Shown: piece after piece, positions 2,460 through 40,514 of the stretch
Layout: each line of letters begins with the position of its first letter
Position numbering within the stretch: position 1 is the first letter of the stretch
NCBI GenBank assembly: GCA_964646925.1
Contig: CAZYIC010000001.1
Location: forward strand, 1 to 58,743
Direction of reading: 5' to 3'
DNA length: 58,743 nt
From: an uncultured Gammaproteobacteria bacterium
GTDB lineage: Bacteria > Patescibacteriota > Microgenomatia > Levybacterales > UBA12049
The notes under the pieces: generated by a model
Told to the model about the DNA's origin: nothing
What the model saw: the letters and a program-made list of their open reading frames with translations, nothing else
Database searches by the model: none
Program-made: the position numbers and the translations under genes

Positions 2460-3603
2460 AACCTAAGGATACCACAACGGAAAGAAGAATTGAAGCTGTA
2501 CTGAGCCAAAGCAGTATTACAGGAACAGGGTTATCCCAATTTCCCAGATACAAAAAGGGGAGATACTGCAAAAGAGAAAATAACGACAGAATCACTCCTG
2601 GAATAAAAAAATAATATTTTTTTGAAACCAATGCTATGAACGGTAATAGATTCAAAAGATACCAAGGCTGAAAATTAGTTCTAATTGTTGCTAGAATTAC
2701 CGGAACTACCATTAAAATCGCCATCGCTGAAAATAAAATTTCCCAATTCAACTGTTTTTTCCTTTTTTGAAGATACAGAATTAATATGTAAATCGGTAGA
2801 ATAAAAGCCGTTGCAAATTTTACCCCAACTGATAATATGAGTAATATAATTGCACGAACATATTTCGTATTCATTAATAAATAAACTGAAAACAATGCCA
2901 AAAGCATCATAACTATATCATTATGGGAAGATACTAAGCTTTCAATAATGACTAAAGGATTTAAGGCAAAAAAGGCAGTGCCAAAAACTTCATTTTCCGG
3001 TGAGACTTTGCGTAAAATTTTGCTTATAAAAAAAGCTGTTCCCAAAAAACTTATTGATACAAGAGCTTTGAAAAGAAAAAATGTCGGTAAAAAAAATTTT
3101 AATCCGACAGACAAAGGAACTGTTAAACCAAGCCAGATTGGCCCGTAAGGGAAAACTCTATGTGTCCAATGCATAAAAGAAAGCATTGGGTCTCCCGGAA
3201 AATCTAACGCCCTATACAAATAAGGATTCTTATGATAAAAAGTCACGATCTTTGCATCGAAGATATAATTAAAAAGATCGTATGAAAAAGCATTGTAAGA
3301 AAATGTCAGCAGAAGAGCAGTTGAAATAATTAAAAACCAGATTGTCTGCCTATTAATCTTTCCTTCGTGAATCTTTCGAAGAATCATTAAGTAAAAAAAG
3401 AAAAGAAACAGAACAATTCCGGCAAATAGAAAACTCGAAAGAGGTCTTTGAAAATAACCAATATTTTGGAAAAACTTCTGTATAACTTGCCAAACCGACC
3501 ATTCCGATAATGTCAGATTAAGGTCTACCTGCGTAAAAGAATAAAAAAACAACCCAACTACGGCTGATAAGTATCCAATAGTCCAAATTGAAAATTTTTT
3601 CAA
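2431..3603 (-). CDS. Polytopic GT-C-like membrane protein (DUF2029/GT87-like mannosyltransferase-type)
   Basis: 390-aa ORF with more than 9 TM segments. Loop FNYIFDAKIVTFYHKNPY...HWTHRVFPYGPIWL resembles DUF2029-type glycosyltransferases. Overlaps both neighbours, operon-like. Confidence 0.45.
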   Translation of the reverse strand: MKKFSIWTIGYLSAVVGLFFYSFTQVDLNLTLSEWSVWQVIQKFFQNIGYFQRPLSSFLFAGIVLFLFFFYLMILRKIHEGKINRQTIWFLIISTALLLTFSYNAFSYDLFNYIFDAKIVTFYHKNPYLYRALDFPGDPMLSFMHWTHRVFPYGPIWLGLTVPLSVGLKFFLPTFFLFKALVSISFLGTAFFISKILRKVSPENEVFGTAFFALNPLVIIESLVSSHNDIVMMLLALFSVYLLMNTKYVRAIILLILSVGVKFATAFILPIYILILYLQKRKKQLNWEILFSAMAILMVVPVILATIRTNFQPWYLLNLLPFIALVSKKYYFFIPGVILSLFSLLQYLPFLYLGNWDNPVPVILLWLSTASILLSVVVSLGYGFIKKIQA

Positions 3604-4355: not shown

Positions 4356-4377
4356 AAAGAAAATTATACTAAAAAAG

Positions 4378-4451
4378 TAGCCCCAAGGGGATTCGAACCC
4401 CTGATCTCAACCTTGAGAAGGTTGCATCCTAGACCACTAGACGATGGGGCC
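4378..4451 (-). tRNA. tRNA-Glu (anticodon CUC)
   Basis: 74-nt cloverleaf read on the minus strand: acceptor GGCCCCA/TGGGGCT, D-arm TCGTCTAGTGGTCTAGGAT, anticodon stem CAACC/GGTTG with loop TTCTCAA, T-arm AGGGG-TTCGAAT-CCCCT, discriminator A. CCA is not encoded. Confidence 0.9.
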
Positions 4452-4606
4452 ATGCATGGCAGGCGGGCGAAAGCGCCTCTACAGTTTATTTTACTCTAAA
4501 ATACTTCCCCAAACAAGCCTTCTCCGAAGTTTTCCAACTGAGATTTTCTATATCAATATAATAAGGAAAATTACTCGTCTACGATTTTGATTTTGGAGAA
4601 TAGTAG

Positions 4607-5074
4607 TTAGTTAAGGATAAATATAGAAAAGTTTAGGATGGAAGCAATAGTAACCCAAACGATGTAGGGATATAAAAGGTAGGCCGCGTTTTTGTCTACC
4701 AATAATGATTGTCTGATAGTGATAAAAATAAAAATCCAAAGAGCGATAATTTCGACAAATGCCAAAAAGATATTGTGCATTCCAAAGAAAATAATTGACC
4801 AAAGAAAATTAAGCGCAAGTTGAATGAAAAATAATCTAATAGCTTTTCCTTTTCCCTTTTTCTTCGAAGTCCACAGGAGATATAAAGAAATTCCCATCAG
4901 AATATAAAGAGTTGTCCAAACAGGTCCAAAAACCCAATTCGGCGGAGCAAAGACGGGTTTATTCAAAACTGCATACCAAGCATTAATTGCAGAAACGGTA
5001 AAAACAGAACCCAAAGCACCGATGGCAAGAGGAAGAACAATTGAAGCAGCTAATTTAAGCAGATTTATCCTCAC
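4607..5074 (-). CDS. tspO: TspO/MBR tryptophan-rich sensory protein (tetrapyrrole-binding membrane protein)
   Basis: 155 aa with 5 TM segments. WYAVLNKPVFAPPNWVFGPVWTTLYILMGISLYLLW is the TspO signature region. GTG start in the track. Confidence 0.85.
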   Translation of the reverse strand: MRINLLKLAASIVLPLAIGALGSVFTVSAINAWYAVLNKPVFAPPNWVFGPVWTTLYILMGISLYLLWTSKKKGKGKAIRLFFIQLALNFLWSIIFFGMHNIFLAFVEIIALWIFIFITIRQSLLVDKNAAYLLYPYIVWVTIASILNFSIFILN

Positions 5075-5134
5075 AATATTAGTATTGCAGAGAACTTACC
5101 GCAATGCAAGTTCCCAAGAAGTAAAATTAATATA

Positions 5135-5473
5135 CTGAAATTCTCCCGCCTCTGCTTTGCTTTAGACAGGCAAATCCTCCATAGACGGGGAACGTTTGAC
5201 GTTCCGGGCAGGCATTTCGGCCGATTCTTCTCTAACTAACAATGTAAGATTGTACCGAGATTGTACCGATACGGGATCGGAATAGCTTGGCGATGTGGTA
5301 CAATTTTCTATTGCTCTCCTTCTAAACCTGCCCGCAAATGCTACGCAAAGCGTTGCAGGCGGGGGCGGGCAAGCGTGAAAAAACGTCACTCTCAGCGCGG
5401 CAATTGTCAAGCTCAGCTTGACGCAAAAATTTTTTTTAAATTCCAAATTTAATCCACCTCTCGGGGATTTCAG
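5135..5473. ncRNA. Unclassified GC-rich, highly self-complementary segment: candidate structured RNA or nest of palindromic elements
   Basis: Lies in a 445-nt gap. Local G+C is about 63% (5341-5400, hand count) against about 30% in the flanks. It has a terminal helix (5135-5148 with 5462-5473) and at least 6 internal helices. There is no plausible ORF and no RNase P, tmRNA or SRP signature. Confidence 0.4.
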
Positions 5474-5519
5474 CTCTGCGGATGCTTCAATAATCTCTCC
5501 AATTTTTGAAACCATACTT

Positions 5520-6335
5520 TTATTTTAATCTCTTAATTGATGGGTTGCCTAACAATGACTGCATTTGAATAATGGCAATTTCATTCAATTGCATTAAGCG
5601 CTCGTTTTGAGACAAACCTTGGCGGATAAGTTCGGAATTTATTCCTTCCAAATTTGCCAATACAACCAATTGTGTAACATCAGAATAGTCACGGATGTTT
5701 CCCTCTTTCTTTGGGTTTTCATCACGCCAATTTTTCGCAGTTTTCCCAAATAATGCCATATTTAAAACGTCCGCTTCATTAGCGTACATAATATTAGTAG
5801 ATTGTTTGGATAGATAAGGAGGAATTAAATGTTTTTTAATCGCATCGGTATGAATTTTGTAATTTATTTTTGTTAAAGTTCTTTTGGCATTCCAACCCAA
5901 TGCCAAACGCTGATTTTCTTCTTCCTTAAGACGCTGAAATTCTTTAATTAAATAAATTTTAAATTCTGGACTGATCCACATCCCAAATTCAAAGGCTATA
6001 TCCTTATGGGCATACGTACCTCCATATCGACCTGCAGTTGCCTTAAGTCCGATAGCTTTTGTTTTTTCTACCCATTCTTTAACGCTTATTTTGTAGTTAT
6101 TCAAACCCGCTTGGCTTTTAATTATGGCAAATTCGCCATAATTAAAACTCTGGTTGTTTATGCTCTCCCAAATACCTAAGAATTCAATGGTATTTCTGTT
6201 CCTTAACCAGTCGGAGATAAAGAAATCTCCATCTTTTGCTTTTAACATATCGGTTAGGGAAATATAATCATGTTCTTTTTTGGAAATAACAGAAATTCTA
6301 ACGCCTTTAACATAAATTCTTTTATTTATATTCAT
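5520..6335 (-). CDS. KilA-N domain DNA-binding protein
   Basis: 271 aa. N-terminal ISLTDMLKAK...FISDWLRNRNTIEFLGIWE...GRYGGTYAHKDIAFEFGMWISPEFKIYLIKEF is the KilA-N fold signature, followed by a helical C-terminal half. Confidence 0.8.
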   Translation of the reverse strand: MNINKRIYVKGVRISVISKKEHDYISLTDMLKAKDGDFFISDWLRNRNTIEFLGIWESINNQSFNYGEFAIIKSQAGLNNYKISVKEWVEKTKAIGLKATAGRYGGTYAHKDIAFEFGMWISPEFKIYLIKEFQRLKEEENQRLALGWNAKRTLTKINYKIHTDAIKKHLIPPYLSKQSTNIMYANEADVLNMALFGKTAKNWRDENPKKEGNIRDYSDVTQLVVLANLEGINSELIRQGLSQNERLMQLNEIAIIQMQSLLGNPSIKRLK

Positions 6336-6494: not shown

Positions 6495-8858
6495 CTAGTC
6501 TATCGGTGAAGGGGCATGAAGAATCGGATGGCGAGACATAAATACAGATTCTGTTTTTTTAAGAGGCTTATTTAAGGCAATACCTATTACTTCATCCATA
6601 TGCGAGACGAATTTAAAGCTTAAATCCCTCACAACTTCTTTTGGCAATTCTACCAAATCTTTCTTATTTTCTTTCGGAACTATAATTGTTTTCAGCCCTG
6701 CTCTATGAGCTGCAATTACTTTTTCTTTGAGTCCTCCGATTTCCATAACGCGTCCGCGCAAAGTGATTTCCCCTGTCATTCCGACTCGTCTGTTAACGGG
6801 AATTTTTGTCAGAGCCGATATGATTGCTGAAGTTATTGCAATGCCGGCTGACGGACCGTCTTTGGGAACCGCGCCTTCGGGAACATGCACATGAACATCT
6901 ATTTTTTGATAAAACTTATCTGATAAACCAAATTGATTTGCCCGAGCTCTAATGTAGGACATTGCTGCCTGACACGATTCCTTCATCACGTCCCCGAGTT
7001 GACCTGTCAAAAGAAGCGTACCTTTTCCAGGCATCAGAGCCACTTCAATAAACAAAATGTCTCCTCCTGCTTCCGTCCAGGCGAGTCCGGTTGACATTCC
7101 AACCTCGTCTTTTTTCTCAACCAGCGTTGAGCTGATTTTAATAGGACCTAAATATTTTACGACTTCTTTTTCGGTAACTTTCACTTTCTGTTCTTTACCC
7201 TCCGCGATTAATTTTGCGACTTTCCTAAGGATTGCCGCGATTTGGCGCTCCAGACTTCTTACTCCCGCCTCCCTTGTGTAATGTTCGATGATAAAACGGA
7301 TGGCGGCATCCGTAATTTCCACTTTTTCGGAAGTCAAACCATGGTTTTCTATTTGTTTTTTGAGCAAAAAATCATGGGCAATTTTAAATTTTTCATCATG
7401 GGTATAACCTGCAAAAGTTATCACTTCCAGACGGTCTCTCAAAGCCGGCGGAATTGTGTCTAAAACATTTGCGGTTGTGACAAACATTACGTCAGATAAA
7501 TCAAAAGGGACTTCAAGATAATGATCCGAGAATTGATTGTTTTGTTCGGGATCCAGCGCTTCCAAAAGAGCGGATGATGGATCTCCTCTGAAATCCGTTC
7601 CTACTTTGTCAATTTCATCCAGCATAAAAACCGGATTTCGGGTCCCCGCATCCTTTACTCCCTGAATTATTCGTCCGGGCAAAGCTCCCACATATGTCCT
7701 TCTATGCCCTCTTATTTCCGCCTCGTCCCTAATTCCCCCAAGTGAAACTCTCACGAATTTTCTACCCAAAGACCTGGCAATAGATTTACCAATTGATGTT
7801 TTACCAACACCCGGAGGTCCTGCAAAACAGAGAATCGGCCCTTTCATTTTTCCGGATAGCTTGTGAACCGCCAAATACTCCACAATTCTTTCTTTGGCTT
7901 TTTTTAGCCCATAATGGTCCTCGTCCAAAATCTTTTCCGCATTGTTAATATCAACATTATTCTTGCTTTTGACAGCCCATGGAAGTGAAACCAGCCATTC
8001 CAAATAATTTCTGATATATCCTGCTTCGGGGTTAAATTGAGCCATCTGAGAAAGTTTTTTAACTTCTTTTTTTGCTTTTTGCTCAATTTCCTCCGGCATT
8101 TTGGCTTTTTTAATCTTCTCCAAAAGTTCGCCTGTTCCGCTTTCATCTTCATCCCCAAGCTCTTTTTCTATAGTCTTAAGACGCTCTCTAAGAATTGCTT
8201 CTCTCGCTCCCTTTTCAAATCTTTCCTGAGTTTTGGAGGCGATACGCTTTTCAAGTTCCAATATCTTCAGTTCTTTTGCGAGAAAATCCGCAATTTTTTC
8301 AAGTCTCTTTCCAACATCATTAATTTCCAATAATTCCTGCCGTTCTTGAGGCTTGATATCCAAAACAGACGCAATAAGATCAGCAAATTCATACGGAGAA
8401 TTGTCGGACATAATATTCATAAATACCAAAAAATCAACTGTTTTTCCAAGATTCATAGCGCGCCTGAATTCATTTGTTAAATGATTGCACAAAGCCTTAA
8501 TTTGAGGACTATTATCAACTACATCGGGAATCTCAATGATCTTTGCCATAAGATAAGAATTTTGATCCTCAATTGACATTATCCTAACTCTGGAAATTCC
8601 TTTAACCTGAGCAATTATCTCTCCTTGGGTTCGCGTCATTCTTTCAATACGGGACAATGTTCCAACAGAATATAAGTCGGAAGGACTTGGATCATTGAGT
8701 TTGGAATTTTTCTGAAGAACAAAACACACAATTCTTTCTCCTCCGAAAGATGATTCTAAAGCTGCCAGACTTTTTGGTCTGCCGAAAGTCAAAACCGAAT
8801 CTGTATTTGGAAATATGACCCCATCTCGTATCGGAATCAAAGGAACTAGTTTTTCCAT
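6495..8858 (-). CDS. lon: ATP-dependent Lon protease
   Basis: 787 aa. LON N-domain, Walker A GPPGVGKTS, catalytic PKDGPSAGIA Ser site. Confidence 0.97.
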   Translation of the reverse strand: MEKLVPLIPIRDGVIFPNTDSVLTFGRPKSLAALESSFGGERIVCFVLQKNSKLNDPSPSDLYSVGTLSRIERMTRTQGEIIAQVKGISRVRIMSIEDQNSYLMAKIIEIPDVVDNSPQIKALCNHLTNEFRRAMNLGKTVDFLVFMNIMSDNSPYEFADLIASVLDIKPQERQELLEINDVGKRLEKIADFLAKELKILELEKRIASKTQERFEKGAREAILRERLKTIEKELGDEDESGTGELLEKIKKAKMPEEIEQKAKKEVKKLSQMAQFNPEAGYIRNYLEWLVSLPWAVKSKNNVDINNAEKILDEDHYGLKKAKERIVEYLAVHKLSGKMKGPILCFAGPPGVGKTSIGKSIARSLGRKFVRVSLGGIRDEAEIRGHRRTYVGALPGRIIQGVKDAGTRNPVFMLDEIDKVGTDFRGDPSSALLEALDPEQNNQFSDHYLEVPFDLSDVMFVTTANVLDTIPPALRDRLEVITFAGYTHDEKFKIAHDFLLKKQIENHGLTSEKVEITDAAIRFIIEHYTREAGVRSLERQIAAILRKVAKLIAEGKEQKVKVTEKEVVKYLGPIKISSTLVEKKDEVGMSTGLAWTEAGGDILFIEVALMPGKGTLLLTGQLGDVMKESCQAAMSYIRARANQFGLSDKFYQKIDVHVHVPEGAVPKDGPSAGIAITSAIISALTKIPVNRRVGMTGEITLRGRVMEIGGLKEKVIAAHRAGLKTIIVPKENKKDLVELPKEVVRDLSFKFVSHMDEVIGIALNKPLKKTESVFMSRHPILHAPSPID

Positions 8859-14867: not shown

Positions 14868-15128
14868 GTGGCATATACTGTTTACATCCTCCGCACATCT
14901 TCAAATACTTTATATACCGGACAAACAAATAATCTTGAGAAAAGATTAAAAGAACATAAAAATAAAACCAAAAGATCAGCAAAATACATGCGAAGTTTTA
15001 AATCATTTAAATTAGCTTACGCTGAAAATCACCCCACTCTTTCTAAAGCCTTAAAACGAGAAATGGAATTAAAAAAATTATCACACACAAAGAAAGAGTT
15101 GTTAATAAAAAAGAAATCTTCTATTTAG
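14868..15128 (+). CDS. GIY-YIG nuclease superfamily small protein (UPF0213-like)
   Basis: 86 aa. YTVYILRTSSNTLYTGQTNNLEKRLKEH is the GIY-YIG core. GTG start. Confidence 0.8.
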   Translation: MAYTVYILRTSSNTLYTGQTNNLEKRLKEHKNKTKRSAKYMRSFKSFKLAYAENHPTLSKALKREMELKKLSHTKKELLIKKKSSI

Positions 15129-21813: not shown

Positions 21814-22140
21814 ATGGTAGAAAGAAATTTTGACCTTGGATTTCCACAAGGACCTAATGGGATAAGATTGGTTCCCGTTAAAGGCCAGATCGGCAAAACC
21901 GAGGAAATGGACACTACGACTCCTTATGGAAGAGCACAACAACTAGTAGACGAGCTTAGATTTATGGCTGGTACGCTAGGAACAAGTGTTTCATATCAAG
22001 CTACAACTCCTATTGTTCCCGGAAATAATAACTCAAAAAAAGATAATCAAAAAATTCGCAACGGAGGTCTTAGTCCTTTTTATGAAAGACAATACCGGGG
22101 TCCTCAAAAAGCAAAACTTCATCCCTTACGAAAATTTTAA
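21814..22140 (+). CDS. Hypothetical small protein
   Basis: 108-aa ORF. No recognisable motif. The 3' end overlaps the recJ stop by 4 nt. Confidence 0.35.
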   Translation: MVERNFDLGFPQGPNGIRLVPVKGQIGKTEEMDTTTPYGRAQQLVDELRFMAGTLGTSVSYQATTPIVPGNNNSKKDNQKIRNGGLSPFYERQYRGPQKAKLHPLRKF

Positions 22141-23978
22141 AAAGATCTTAAATCCTTAATTTTCAATTGTAGTCTTTTGTTTCCATTCCCGCCTGCAAAT
22201 GCCTGAGCATTGCTCTGGCGGGCAGGCCATTCATTTTCGTCAATTGTATAAACAATATCAATCTTTTCGCCGGTTTTAATTTTAGAAAACATTTCCCCCA
22301 TCCCAAACCCAATTGCATCAAATACAGTATCGTCATTCTGAGGCACAGCCGAAGAATCTCTAGATCCTTCACTTCGTCCTGCGCCAGACGGTGCGGGACT
22401 TCGTTCAGGATGACACACTAATCGCATTTTTAGGTGCTTTCCTTCTGCGCCAACCATTCTTATCTCTTCAATCACAACGCCTTTACTTATAAATGTTGGC
22501 TCCGGATTTCCCATCCCAAAAGGAGCAAGTTTCTGCAAAGCTTCATACAAATTGACGTCAACGAAAGATAAAGGCAACTCACAATCAATCTTTAAGCTCC
22601 GGGTCAGCAAGTCTTCGTTAAGCATTAATTCCGCTTTTCTCTCCAAGGCTTTTTGAAGTTTTAGAAGTTTTATTGTCTCAACTGTAAATCCCGCTGCCAT
22701 CGGATGTCCTCCGGCATCCACCAAAAATTCTGAGGCGCTTCTGATAAATTCAATTATGTTAAATCCGCTCACAGACCTAGCCGATGCTTTGCTAAATTTT
22801 TTCCCAATTGAAACTACTATTGTAGGTCTATAGAATTCTTCAACCATTTTTCCGGCAACAAGACCGATAACCCCCTGCCCATAACTTTCATGAGAAATAA
22901 ATAGTAAATTCTTTAGCTTCTCTTTTTTCATTTTTACATAATCTTTCGCGTGCAAAACTGCCTGCATTGTTAAATCTTGTCTCTCCCTGTTCGTACTCCC
23001 TAGCAAACGGGCAAGATCTTCTGCTCTTTTTTTATTATTAGTGCAAATCAAACGCAAGCTATCCATTGCATATTCCAGTCTTCCCATTGCGTTAACACGG
23101 GGCGCAATTAGATGTCCTATTTCATAAACTCCGATTTTTTCTTTTTCCAAACCAGCTTCTTTGAAAAGCTCCAAAAGCCCTACCCGTTTTGTTTTCCTCA
23201 AAGCTTCCAAACCAAATTTTAATAATGTCCTGTTTGCGCCCTTCAAGGGAACCAAATCCGCAACCGTCGCAAGCGCTACCAACTCTAAATGTTTCTCGTT
23301 GTCATGCTGAACTTGCTCGCCTCGCTGCGAAGCGGGTTTCAGCGTCTCCTTTTTATTGAGCTGAAATGAATTCAGGATGACACAGGAGAAAAGCCAAGCG
23401 ACTCCGGTTCCGCACAACTTGGTCGTATGAACAATTGCAAGAGCCTTTGGTTTTGTTTTTGAAGGAACGTGGTGGTCGGTAATAATTACATCTATTCCCT
23501 GTCCGTTAGCAAAATCAACTGCCTTATTTGCAACAATCCCATTGTCTACGGTAATTATCAAACCGCAATTTTTAATTTTTAATTTTAAATTTTTAATTCC
23601 TGTCTCCGACAGGCCGTATCCTTCATCGATTCTATGTGGAATATACGGCATAACCTTTGCGCCAATTGAATTGAGGGTCTCCCAAAGAATCGCCGTGCCG
23701 CAAATTCCATCAACATCATAATCTCCAAAAACTACAATTTGTTCCTTGTTCTTAATTGCATTTTGAATCCTCGAAATTGCCTTATTTAATTGCTTTTTAT
23801 TAATTCCAACGCTATTAATATTTACATTTTCAATTTTTGGATGCAAAAACTCCTCAATCTCTCTTTTTGTCTTTATTCCCCGATTTTCTAGAATAATTTT
23901 TATTAGATCGTCTGTATTGAATTTTGCCTGCCCGCCGAAGCCTCGGCGAAGGAGGGAATTTTGAATTTTGAATTTCAC
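22137..23978 (-). CDS. recJ: Single-stranded-DNA-specific exonuclease RecJ carrying repeat-derived in-frame insertions
   Basis: DHH motifs (FGDYDVDGICGTA, ITDHHVP), DHHA1 (GGHPMAAG) and a C-terminal OB region. The start is uncertain. I chose GTG 23978 because the ATG at 24011 would overlap the divergent cca start. Confidence 0.9.
   Translation of the reverse strand: MKFKIQNSLLRRGFGGQAKFNTDDLIKIILENRGIKTKREIEEFLHPKIENVNINSVGINKKQLNKAISRIQNAIKNKEQIVVFGDYDVDGICGTAILWETLNSIGAKVMPYIPHRIDEGYGLSETGIKNLKLKIKNCGLIITVDNGIVANKAVDFANGQGIDVIITDHHVPSKTKPKALAIVHTTKLCGTGVAWLFSCVILNSFQLNKKETLKPASQRGEQVQHDNEKHLELVALATVADLVPLKGANRTLLKFGLEALRKTKRVGLLELFKEAGLEKEKIGVYEIGHLIAPRVNAMGRLEYAMDSLRLICTNNKKRAEDLARLLGSTNRERQDLTMQAVLHAKDYVKMKKEKLKNLLFISHESYGQGVIGLVAGKMVEEFYRPTIVVSIGKKFSKASARSVSGFNIIEFIRSASEFLVDAGGHPMAAGFTVETIKLLKLQKALERKAELMLNEDLLTRSLKIDCELPLSFVDVNLYEALQKLAPFGMGNPEPTFISKGVVIEEIRMVGAEGKHLKMRLVCHPERSPAPSGAGRSEGSRDSSAVPQNDDTVFDAIGFGMGEMFSKIKTGEKIDIVYTIDENEWPARQSNAQAFAGGNGNKRLQLKIKDLRSF
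22332..22415. repeat. Family-1 palindromic element (GTCATYCTGA...TCAGRATGAC), copy a; 84 bp, in frame inside recJ
   Basis: Terminal inverted repeats GTCATTCTGA / TCAGGATGAC. Encodes CHPERSPAPSGAGRSEGSRDSSAVPQND. About 80% identical to the reverse complement of copy d (40435-40514). Confidence 0.8.
23301..23382. repeat. Family-1 palindromic element, copy b (subtype with ATGCTGAA/TTCAGCAT hairpins), inside recJ
   Basis: GTCATGCTGAA...TTCAGGATGACA. Encodes VILNSFQLNKKETLKPASQRGEQVQHD. Related to the reverse complement of copy c, but with an extra GC-rich insert in the first hairpin loop. Confidence 0.7.
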
Positions 23979-24005
23979 ACTGTGATATACTATATCAGGA
24001 TGACA
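23926..24005. repeat. Composite repeat patch: family-2-like GC-rich unit, ATTTTGA heptamers, and a family-1 half-site
   Basis: GCCTGCCCGCCGAAGCCTCGGCGAAGGAGGG (compare 44050-44070), then ATTTTGA ATTTTGA, then TCAGGATGACA. Forms the recJ N-terminus on one strand and the cca ATG on the other. Confidence 0.55.
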
Positions 24006-25373
24006 CAACATATTCCACAACAAATTATCAACACCTACAACAAAATAAAAGAGGCTAATTTTGAAATTTATCTGGTTGGAGGGTGTGTTAGAAATCTTCT
24101 CCTCAAAAGAGATGTAAAAGACTGGGATATGACTACCAATGCAACTCCGGAACAGATTCTCAAGATTTTTAAGGATGGATTTTATGACAATAAATTCGGT
24201 ACAGTGGGCATTCCCCTCCATACTACAGTGTATGGAAGGTTGATTGTTGAGATTACAACTTTTAGAACAGAGACCGGTTACAGCGACAAAAGAAGACCCG
24301 ACAGTGTTTCCTGGGGAAAATCCATCGAGGAAGATCTTGCACGCCGCGACTTTACCATCAATTCCATCGCAATGAAACTAGACGCTCGACGCTCGACGCT
24401 AAGCACTAGCGTAATTGATCCTTACAATGGTCAGCAAGATATCAAGAATAAATTAATCCGTGCGGTTGGAAATCCGAACGAAAGATTCAAAGAAGATGCC
24501 CTAAGACTTTTAAGAGCGATAAGAATTGCAGCGGAATACCAGTTCATAATTGAAGAAAAAACATTCAAAGTTATTCAGGAAGATGCTCCATTAATTAAAA
24601 ATATTTCGGGAGAAAGAATCAAAACAGAATTATTAAGAATTTTATCAACAGATTTTACATATGACGGAATTATACTTTTAAAAAACTCCGGACTCTTGAA
24701 ACATATTCTTCCTGAACTATTGGAAGGAATCGATGTCTCCCAAGTAAGACCCGGACGACATCATACAACCGATGTTTTTACCCATAACATAATGTCATTG
24801 AAATTCTGTCCGTCAAACGATCCAATAGTAAGATTCGCAACCCTCATTCACGACATTGGCAAACCAAAAGCAATTGGCAAAGATGAAAATGGTCTTGTAA
24901 CTTTTTATAATCATGAAATAGTCGGAGCGAGAATAGCAAATGAGATTTGCGAAAGGCTGAGATTTTCCAAAAAAGAAAAAGACAGGGTTTACAACTTAAT
25001 TAGATGGCATATGTTTACTGTCGATGAAAAAGTAAGTGACGCCGGAATAAGAAGATTTATAAGACGAGTTGGAGTTGAAAATGTAAAAGATGTAATGGAT
25101 TTAAGAATTGGAGACAGGCTTGGAGGAGGAACCCAAACAGCAGAAAGCTGGAGACTTAAACTTTTCAAAAAAAGAATTGAAGAACAATTACAACCTGCCC
25201 CCTTCTCAATAAATGATTTAGCAATTGACGGAAATGACATTATTAAAGAATTAAATATTAAACCCGGACCAAAGATTGGCGAAATTCTCCAAAAACTTTT
25301 CCTCGAAGTCGACGAAGATCTCTCAAAAAACAATAAAGAATTCTTACTCAAAAGAATAAAAGAGCTTGATTAG
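24000..25373 (+). CDS. cca: CCA-adding tRNA nucleotidyltransferase with HD domain
   Basis: YLVGGCVRNLLL...DWD head domain and HD domain (LIHDIGKP). I placed the start at MTQHIPQQ (ATG 24000); the track start is a TTG extension. Confidence 0.9.
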   Translation: MTQHIPQQIINTYNKIKEANFEIYLVGGCVRNLLLKRDVKDWDMTTNATPEQILKIFKDGFYDNKFGTVGIPLHTTVYGRLIVEITTFRTETGYSDKRRPDSVSWGKSIEEDLARRDFTINSIAMKLDARRSTLSTSVIDPYNGQQDIKNKLIRAVGNPNERFKEDALRLLRAIRIAAEYQFIIEEKTFKVIQEDAPLIKNISGERIKTELLRILSTDFTYDGIILLKNSGLLKHILPELLEGIDVSQVRPGRHHTTDVFTHNIMSLKFCPSNDPIVRFATLIHDIGKPKAIGKDENGLVTFYNHEIVGARIANEICERLRFSKKEKDRVYNLIRWHMFTVDEKVSDAGIRRFIRRVGVENVKDVMDLRIGDRLGGGTQTAESWRLKLFKKRIEEQLQPAPFSINDLAIDGNDIIKELNIKPGPKIGEILQKLFLEVDEDLSKNNKEFLLKRIKELD

Positions 25374-40420: not shown

Positions 40421-40434
40421 AAATTATTTCCAAT

Positions 40435-40514
40435 GTCATTCTGAACGAAGGGACGCACCGTCTGGTGCATCCCGAAGTGAAGAATCCAGATCCTTCGTTT
40501 CACTCAGGATGACA
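40435..40514. repeat. Family-1 palindromic element, copy d; 80 bp between ugd and rfbD, supplying the rfbD stop codon
   Basis: GTCATTCTGAACGAAG-[GGACGCACC GTCT GGTGCATCC]-CGAAGTGAAG...CTCAGGATGACA. The rfbD ORF ends LSS-TGA inside the terminal repeat. Confidence 0.8.

Follow-up and report, generated by a model that had tools for sequence, protein, structure and literature searches.

The spacer between the KilA-N and TspO genes of a Levybacteria genome (positions 5135–5473 of contig CAZYIC010000001.1) is probably genome-specific selfish DNA that carries small palindromic mobile elements, and not one structured RNA. Throughout, the window means the whole stretch of DNA that was analysed, which is 58,743 nucleotides (nt) long. 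Within the spacer lies a copy of a 36-nt hairpin element that occurs, nearly identical, in many unrelated sequence contexts, accompanied by pieces that resemble ends of the same element in opposite orientation. Elsewhere, the hairpin recurs beside genes for a small GIY-YIG nuclease. On this reading, the spacer is unremarkable as selfish DNA, and what merits specialist attention is the hairpin family with its link to the GIY-YIG genes.

A dispersed 36-nt hairpin and its traces in the spacer

Only a ~38-nt piece of the spacer has matches in relatives. Positions 5075–5520 were compared, by nhmmer and blastn, with 80 lon loci fetched from as many species and later with 208 loci in all (1.9 Mb; loci are given L-numbers below), and nothing beyond this piece matched. 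The first matches of window positions 5327–5363 lay at unrelated positions in L003 and L038. A first-pass annotation, made from the sequence alone, had suggested such a search of relatives as a check on a possible RNA; in the DNA searched, the 36-mer alone proved to be conserved. A metagenome scan found the element in at least 120 stretches with unrelated flanks, and a further exact-pattern scan returned two viral contigs. Its host contigs range from 30 to 65% GC. Levybacteria carry few copies: the window and the Levybacteria loci, ~1.1 Mb together, contain three full ones.

The element is a 36-nt unit with sharp ends. Its consensus is CCTGCCCGCAWTGCTACGCAWAGCGTTGCAGGCGGG, or, with the variable sites written out, CCTGCCCGCA[A/T/G]TGCTACGCA[T/A/C]AGCGTTGCAGGCGGG. 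The exact-pattern scan used 21 specified bases and left 11 bases free on the 5′ side, the 3′ half being fixed. In 119 distinct contexts, each of the 11 free bases is kept in 87–97% of copies while the bases just outside both ends are random, and it is this that sets the length and limits of the unit. The consensus ends in CCTG and CGGG; the one place where GTAG appears is the loop, on the complementary strand. Searches of a literature collection by element sequence, encoded peptides and keywords returned no description of the 36-nt element.

All three pattern-free pairs of the stem show compensatory change. Pair 3:30 occurs as U-A, A-U and C-G, pair 10:22 as A.A or C-G, and pair 11:21 as A-U, U-A and G-C; none of 500 shuffles matches the observed covariation. 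Thermodynamically, the best fold of the element is an alternative register displaced by 5 nt, which had no freedom to vary in the pattern-selected set; in variants adjoining GIY-YIG genes, this register is, by eye, compensated at 16:26. Counts of G-U against A-C were also tried as a guide to the strand of the hairpin. Because T is no commoner than A opposite a fixed G, and because the search pattern fixed the 3′ half, no strand was assigned from them.

A filled site (L003) and an empty site (L014) differ by the 36-mer alone, without target duplication. The two loci share a ~75-nt hairpin with the loop GTGTATGAATAATACT, inside which the 36-mer lies in L003. Elsewhere, the element is nested in the loop of its own copies (L090, L108 and L115). 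Besides intergenic DNA, genes are frequent hosts: for 33 of the 123 copies, the reading frame stays open over 60 codons or more to either side, and the conserved proteins that carry the 36-mer include AlaRS, H+-pyrophosphatase, BipA, a UvrD-like helicase and UvrB. The encoded insert is a peptide of 12 amino acids (aa), for example PARNATHSVAGG, and alignment of UvrB to PDB 2fdc_A shows an exact 12-aa insert. The 36-mer is also found within 23S rRNA genes (L083 and L159), 2 nt ahead of a 16S rRNA gene (L113) and, in six of the loci checked, 14–33 nt from a tRNA gene (L087, L091, L126, L138, L183 and L199). A 42-nt insert in a tRNA-like gene of L038 was considered as a tRNA intron and rejected, given two acceptor mismatches and no ARAGORN call; comparison with L004 reveals the gene as a decayed tRNA-Glu duplicate with element pieces.

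Short tandem repeats of 6–11 nt often surround or adjoin the 36-mer (L085, L102, L134, L177, L188, L202 and others), such as AGTCAGT, TTGGATG and, in L134, an ATAACTG-like repeat. Similar heptamer repeats occur in cyanobacteria and large sulfur bacteria. The 23S rRNA gene of L083 (6010–9519; 3510 nt against a 2925-nt model) holds a group I intron (6689–6929), the 36-mer, an insertion of the hairpin GTCAAGC-TCA-GCTTGAC with its own outer stem, and a short tandem repeat block (8620–8700). In L162, ~6.3 kb lie between inverted 36-mer copies at 1377–1401 and 7735–7759, whose shared flanks exceed 100 nt each; the copies may belong to a larger element with hairpin-bearing inverted ends. A further conserved hairpin, of ~75–110 nt, occurs in L003 (1397–1510), L014 (5229–5300), L165 (~420–520), L166 (~140–260) and L195 (~3270–3390). 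Its ends are CCCGCC...GGCGGG and its loop, GTGTATGAATAATACTGA, is conserved; the stems differ greatly, and Rfam has no match for it. In four of the five members (L003, L165, L166 and L195), the loop contains the 36-mer. Possibly this hairpin is a small RNA that has gone unrecognised, or else it belongs, as a larger form, to the repeat superfamily of the 36-mer.

The window copy is slightly decayed, having one extra A and an A.A mismatch (Table 1). The segment bounded by opposite-orientation element ends encloses two hairpins, TTGCTT-TAGAC-AGGCAA (5157–5173) and GGAACG-TTTGA-CGTTCC (5189–5205). Long or split variants with the same ends are present in L209 and L004, and the segment is possibly another such variant of the family. 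These pieces bear on the long-range helices that had been proposed, some as parts of a pseudoknot or switch. The pairings are present, that of CGGGCAGG (5205–5212) with CCTGCCCG (5327–5334) among them, but several are explained by repeat ends. Because 5205–5212 and GCGGGCA (5365–5371) are end-like fragments in opposite orientation, both are complementary to the intact copy at its 5′ end, and the predicted pairing of 5145–5155 with its 3′ end would have the same origin.

Other repeats occur in the spacer and elsewhere in the window. The second hairpin type of the spacer recurs as an inserted stem-loop in the 23S rRNA gene of an unrelated contig (L083), a match expected ~0.0005 times by chance in 1.9 Mb (an estimate, 1.9 Mb / 4^16). 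The window contains three occurrences of the element-end fragment, one of them beside tRNA-Glu, where 0.05 would be expected. Further copies of the features at 5247–5304 were not found in the loci examined; tandem repeats like the one at 5247–5268 also flank many 36-mers, in the six loci named above. The recJ-like open reading frame (ORF) that hosts the second family member carries another, different in-frame palindromic element at 22359–22415, which is present again at 40434–40490. In this genome, that second palindromic family (TGTCATCCTGAACGAAG...GAAGTGAAGGATC) has a further GC-rich hairpin nested at its centre; relatives without the inner hairpin occur in L026, L112, L133 and L142.

Table 1. 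Features of the spacer, its insertion and related sites in the window (HMM, hidden Markov model)
Feature	Position	Strand	Basis
Solo copy of the 36-nt element, 37 nt (one extra A, A.A at 11:21)	5327–5363	+	HMM from 112 copies, E=2.2e-10
Segment bounded by opposite-orientation element ends CCCGCC...GGGCAGG	5145–5212	+	Pattern CCCGCC-N45-75-GGGCRGG: 1 match vs 0.01 expected
GCGGGCAAG, resembling element end GCGGGCAGG	5365–5373	+	Read from the sequence; interpretation inferred
Tandem 11-mer AGATTGTACCG x2 (5247–5268), hairpin CCGAT-ACGGG-ATCGG (5266–5280), inverted repeat ATTGTACC/GGTACAAT	5247–5304	+	Sequence
Second hairpin type GTCAAGC-TCA-GCTTGAC	5406–5422	+	Recurs at L083 8456–8472, 16/16 specified bases
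Element-end fragment GCAGGCGGG beside tRNA-Glu	4459–4467	+	Common to L004, whose element halves flank a tRNA
Second family member, 39-nt variant, PARQSNAQAFAGG	22188–22226	+	In frame in recJ-like gene 22137–24221 (−)
KilA-N/TspO spacer, GC-rich, non-coding	5135–5473	none	Composition; no homologue of the whole found
Genome-specific insertion of ~2 kb (TspO, spacer, KilA-N)	4521 to ~6510	none	Gene order in lon loci of 80 Levybacteria and relatives; alignment of its borders to L003 and L004
tRNA-Glu	4377–4451	−	At one border of the insertion, with lon at the other
TspO gene	4607–5074	−	PF03073
KilA-N gene	5520–6335	−	PF04383
Remnant, start of a small ORF (MVSKIGEII...)	5490–5514	−	92% over 25 nt to L203 4209–4233 and relatives

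Setting of the spacer and competing readings

The spacer belongs to a block that close relatives lack. Among the genomes recovered, the closest Levybacteria/Levyibacteriota have a Lon protease 90–92% identical to that of the window. Most relatives have tRNA-Glu immediately after lon, and then a glycosyltransferase gene; L003 and L004 have no TspO–spacer–KilA-N block between lon and tRNA-Glu. The two flanking genes had been named correctly from the sequence alone, as their Pfam matches confirm. For KilA-N, over 8000 relatives score at E<1e-20; many are 75–91% identical and belong to different candidate phyla, and a Nitrospirota genome is also among the hosts. Because this level of identity extends over so many phyla, KilA-N looks like a travelling, very mobile cassette.

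The spacer does not accompany the closest KilA-N homologues. The first-pass annotation had asked whether homologous segments always follow KilA-N genes, and the closest homologues (91% identical) carry a different downstream region, consisting of a 98-aa ORF and a small ORF. A conserved tail of the KilA-N cassette was thereby rejected, as only 25 nt (5490–5514), which match the start of that small ORF, are in common. An association of the hairpin with KilA-N was also considered; only L167 and the window have KilA-N nearby, too few to judge. The closest KilA-N relatives form a conserved four-gene cassette beside a type I restriction enzyme gene.

The composition of the spacer agrees with the earlier description, and its folding agrees in part. 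G+C is 0.478, against 0.365 for the whole window, and the 300-nt bin with the highest G+C is 5101–5400 (0.487). All of the motifs previously listed were re-read and found in place. Dense self-complementarity holds for perfect 7-nt inverted repeats, of which there are 14 against 4.35 ± 2.56 in 500 dinucleotide shuffles (one of the 500 reaches 14), but not for 8-nt repeats (3 against 1.17 in shuffles; not significant) or for the fold of the whole region. The excess is thus limited to short repeats. Whole-region folding is weak and marginally above shuffles, with a z of −2.25 on the + strand, where 2 of 100 shuffles are equally good, and a z of −1.40 on the − strand, which is no better than shuffles.

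Most probably the spacer is selfish DNA that arrived recently, within the ~2-kb block inserted beside tRNA-Glu in this Levybacteria genome only. It contains a near-intact 36/37-nt hairpin (5327–5363), apparent opposite-orientation end pieces (5145–5212 and 5365–5373) and other short hairpins, at least one of which (5406–5422) is also an insertion elsewhere. Its GC richness and self-complementarity would then follow from the accumulation of small GC-rich palindromic elements. The apparent long-range helices would require no selection for an RNA fold, because oppositely oriented copies or fragments of one palindrome are complementary. We take the 36-mer of the window for a solo copy that has decayed slightly. 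Should a − strand transcript run from KilA-N through the spacer into tspO, the hairpins in it would be incidental barriers or processing sites at most.

The first-pass annotation had offered a nest of palindromic elements as its alternative to an RNA, and had held that decomposition into dispersed short repeats would speak against a single RNA. Such decomposition is found for part of the segment: the 36-mer, the end fragments and 5406–5422 are repeats, whereas the remaining ~230 nt match no repeat family. Because no relative was found for those ~230 nt, which lie outside 5145–5212 and 5327–5373, in the loci searched, the nest is demonstrated over part of the region and is an extrapolation over what remains. 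Their isolation weighs against the selfish-DNA reading, as do three other points. It is by its two ends alone that segment 5145–5212 is assigned to the family; enriched inverted 7-mers are also expected from a genuine RNA; and the genome and metagenome scans, one of each, were based on exact words, which a fast-evolving RNA conserved only in structure would escape.

Among the other readings, we give most weight to a cis-acting role, which we nonetheless consider unlikely. The spacer would be part of a − strand KilA-N–tspO transcript, either as a long tspO leader or as a hairpin-built intercistronic stabiliser or attenuator, like the repetitive extragenic palindromic (REP) elements and bacterial interspersed mosaic elements (BIMEs) in Escherichia coli operons. 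Both flanking genes are on the − strand, separated by a 445-nt gap, and a simple scan of 4900–5700 found no terminator-like site on either strand. An intrinsic terminator combines a GC-rich stem with a T run within 0–2 nt; the T8 run begins 7 nt past the stem at 5406–5422. REPs, moreover, are reported mostly downstream of coding regions, where they act as RNA elements (PMC3733652). Against this stands the TspO homologue of L018 (58% identical), the one homologue inspected, whose upstream gap is 28 nt and follows an unrelated gene pair. On this homologue, a conserved tspO leader was rejected, and the earlier suggestion that the segment might always precede tspO is answered in the negative. In addition, KilA-N cassettes elsewhere have other neighbours, KilA-N and tspO are not inherited together, the − strand fold does not exceed shuffles, and no riboswitch family matches.

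Less probable still is that the + strand encodes a free-standing structured non-coding RNA of ~340 nt, specific to this lineage, into which the 36-nt hairpin was merely inserted or in which it was recruited as an arm. The spacer has the top G+C in an AT-rich window, its inverted 7-mers are enriched, and it folds better on the + strand than on the − strand; that the 36-mer sits in the apical loop of the ~75–110-nt hairpin family also indicates that real structured elements can host it. However, Rfam has no match for such an RNA. At gathering score, Rfam 15 matched only two tRNAs in the whole window, and on 5000–5600 at E≤10 it gave four chance-level matches (E 2.2–9.3) with scores far under the cut-offs. 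ARAGORN found no transfer-messenger RNA (tmRNA) in the window. The negatives recorded earlier for RNase P RNA, tmRNA and signal recognition particle RNA are upheld by these results, which extend to 6S RNA, riboswitches, group I/II introns and the other large non-coding RNAs of Rfam 15. A divergent RNase P RNA was considered, given that GGCAAAUCCUCCAUAG on the + strand resembles GGAAAGUCC...CCAUAG, which we take to be the RNase P core; the candidate was rejected, since no RNase P model matches at E≤10 and relatives lack the segment. A tmRNA or intron-bearing tRNA in the window was likewise rejected, as ARAGORN and Rfam find neither.

Comparison with relatives also argues against this RNA. Homologues exist for the 36-mer alone, the closest relatives lack the region, and across the 208 loci the proposed long-range helices have no homologues in relatives in which compensatory change could appear. 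The 117-aa ORF across the region matches itself alone among 5.8 billion proteins. The earlier argument that G-U pairs favour the + strand gains no comparative support. A simple scan found no promoter-like or terminator-like sites bracketing 5135–5473, and several of the "helices" are explained by repeat fragments. The single unclassified structured RNA proposed in the first-pass annotation is therefore not upheld: it has no Rfam match, relatives lack the region, and in the DNA searched the 36-mer alone has homologues.

A single composite miniature inverted-repeat transposable element (MITE), with the terminal inverted repeats CTGAAATTCTCCCG (5135–5148) and CGGGGATTTCAG (5462–5473), is very improbable. 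Its arms pair over 11–12 bases and bracket exactly the GC-rich part, and its size would be typical. On the other hand, no target-site duplication lies beside the arms, just as the filled and empty sites of L003 and L014 show none; neither arm has a second copy in the window or the 1.9 Mb of loci at up to two mismatches; and no other copies of interior parts were found. A decayed protein-coding gene or a remnant of a tRNA/GIY-YIG cassette can hardly be entertained: 5490–5514 is a small-ORF remnant of the KilA-N cassette, and at other loci a GIY-YIG gene and tRNA fragments are normally found with the hairpin, but a pseudogene origin is contradicted by zero Pfam matches in the six reading frames of 5135–5473 and by an empty tblastn of the region with four GIY-YIG proteins, and Rfam and ARAGORN detect no tRNA-like piece there.

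Association with small GIY-YIG nuclease genes and tRNA genes

The ORF family most recurrent at hairpin loci is a ~80-aa GIY-YIG protein (PF01541; E 2e-16 and 3e-14). It was identified by clustering 2848 ORFs from 122 hairpin loci, judging the 25 largest clusters by their representatives and checking the top one against Pfam. Among the matches listed, 120 of 120 GIY-YIG homologues carry PF01541. A GIY-YIG gene lies within 500 nt of the hairpin in 6 independent loci of 119, against ~0.7 expected from the density of such genes in lon loci. The reciprocal test, which sets out from miscalled start codons, gave a stronger result: by reading, 22 of the 24 GIY-YIG homologues whose start was called too early translate the family hairpin just ahead of the real start, giving PPATLCVALRAG, PACNAMRSIAGR, MLRIALQAG and variants. 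All five loci fetched by GIY-YIG protein alone carry the family hairpin, which lies no more than ~25 nt upstream of the start codon in four of them and 13 nt past the stop codon in L212.

Genes of this family are also found directly beside tRNA genes. In L137, L215 and L218, the GIY-YIG gene ends 0–7 nt before a tRNA-Gln gene, and in L118 (tRNA-Asn) and L221 (tRNA-Ile), a tRNA gene follows within ~35 nt. In these five loci, the first 8–19 nt of the neighbouring tRNA are repeated upstream of the hairpin. The arrangement looks like a cassette lodged at tRNA 5′ ends, of which the solo hairpins would be a dispersed derivative.

Our tentative proposal, which we think somewhat likelier to be wrong than right, is that the hairpin and its variants are the non-autonomous partner of the ~80-aa GIY-YIG family. 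The full form would be [tRNA 5′ fragment]-hairpin-GIY-YIG-tRNA and would reside at tRNA genes. The hairpin would fold as single-stranded DNA or RNA and be spread in trans by, or together with, the GIY-YIG nuclease, so that solo copies reach intergenic DNA, rRNA genes, tRNA loops and, in frame, essential proteins across distant bacterial lineages. This would be a selfish system like that of REPs and their REP-associated tyrosine transposases (RAYTs), built on a different nuclease fold.

Several observations count against this partnership. No GIY-YIG gene lies beside the window copy. The window does have a GIY-YIG ORF (14874–15074, + strand), which belongs to another subfamily, is 43% identical to that of L101 and has no hairpin nearby. 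At the GIY-YIG genes of lon loci, which are of other subfamilies, the canonical hairpin is present at 0 of 5. Co-location of hairpin and nuclease could also come partly from a shared preference for tRNA-adjacent DNA.

Split forms of the hairpin occur within tRNA-like genes. In L209 (GCA_001780055.1, 940–1170), hairpin halves interrupt the D loop of a tRNA-like gene, and the hairpin loop holds a complete tRNA-Val(cac). The same split layout surrounds tRNA-Glu in L004 (4780–4900). In both loci, the outer tRNA may be a pseudogene, or the hairpin halves may be processed, with the host tRNA surviving in pieces as a working split tRNA.

For the window itself, these findings remove a false lead: GC-rich, self-complementary spacers in the AT-rich genomes of candidate phyla can be piles of mobile hairpins, not RNA genes. 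The hairpin family itself combines 36 nt that stay nearly identical across contigs of 30–65% GC with tolerance in 23S rRNA genes, next to or within tRNA-like sequences and in conserved proteins, and it is linked to a small GIY-YIG gene that is very common yet uncharacterised. Were the nuclease to move the hairpin, the abundant Patescibacteria genes annotated as "GIY-YIG nuclease family protein" would have a role assigned to them, and REP-like repeats would have a second class of enzyme behind their spread. Hairpin inserts can also mislead gene callers, through spurious N-terminal extensions, as well as tRNA finders and RNA-discovery pipelines.

Comparison with known mobile repeats and nucleases

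Free-standing GIY-YIG homing endonucleases offer one parallel. Here too, a small ORF with a GIY-YIG catalytic domain lies at a conserved host gene, directly 5′ of a tRNA gene. The ~80-aa protein, however, extends barely beyond the catalytic domain and has no recognisable DNA-binding extension. In addition, the ORF is accompanied by a conserved hairpin that also spreads alone, and in this case any site-specific cleavage and copying into an empty target would be visible as a sequence footprint only. Yeast mitochondrial GC clusters and the repetitive hairpin-forming elements of sponges are likewise GC-rich hairpins in AT-rich genomes, found in genes and rRNA and often beside free-standing endonuclease ORFs. 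These elements are organellar and unrelated in sequence to the 36-nt hairpin, and the likeness is one of description.

The small dispersed repeats (SDRs) of Nostoc described by Elhai et al. 2008 are said to measure 21–27 nt and to have been reported only in Nostocaceae. They are non-coding hairpins of tens of nt that are nested, lie within short tandem repeats and vary in presence or absence at conserved sites, all of which are properties in common with the 36-mer. By description, the hairpin differs in its length, its many host lineages and its GIY-YIG neighbour; SDRs are not known to have a partner enzyme. A passage of PMC5861425 cites the SDRs of Nostoc and its relatives.

Rickettsia palindromic elements (RPEs) are mobile palindromes inserted in frame in unrelated conserved protein genes (PMC10969869). 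The 36-nt element resembles them in lying in frame in UvrB, AlaRS, H+-pyrophosphatase, BipA and RecJ, where it adds a conserved 12-aa peptide. By their description, RPEs are set apart by a length of ~150 bp and by their restriction to Rickettsia, whereas the hairpin spans many lineages and has rRNA genes and tRNA-like sequences among its sites.

The closest comparison may be with REPs and with REP doublets forming hairpins (REPINs), from which the present family nevertheless differs in several respects. REPs carry an unpaired GTAG or CGTC tag at one end (PMC3733652), and the tail of the hairpin is CGGG/CCCG. Its copy number is low (3 full copies in the ~1.1 Mb of Levybacteria loci), in contrast to tens to thousands per genome. 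REPs are extragenic, whereas about a quarter of hairpin copies lie in open frames and some in rRNA genes. The same hairpin sequence occurs across contigs of very different GC content. A RAYT is an IS200-type tyrosine transposase; the gene that neighbours the hairpin encodes a GIY-YIG nuclease (PF01541) instead, and reading of the representatives revealed no RAYT-like recurrent family among the 25 largest ORF clusters.

The likenesses are structural as well as genomic. Both are 20–40-nt imperfect palindromes with an unpaired four-base tail, compensated stems, clusters and nested copies, and a short imperfect palindrome repeated within a genome is what we find in the 58.7-kb window, with two members plus fragments. 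REPs occasionally lie inside genes, notably DNA-repair genes (PMC3733652), and hosts of the hairpin include UvrB, a UvrD-like helicase and RecJ. A RAYT gene is flanked by its repeat (PMC3116915), and here an enzyme gene is again flanked by a repeat. The proposed spread of the hairpin with a GIY-YIG nuclease would thus resemble that of REP elements with their RAYT transposase.

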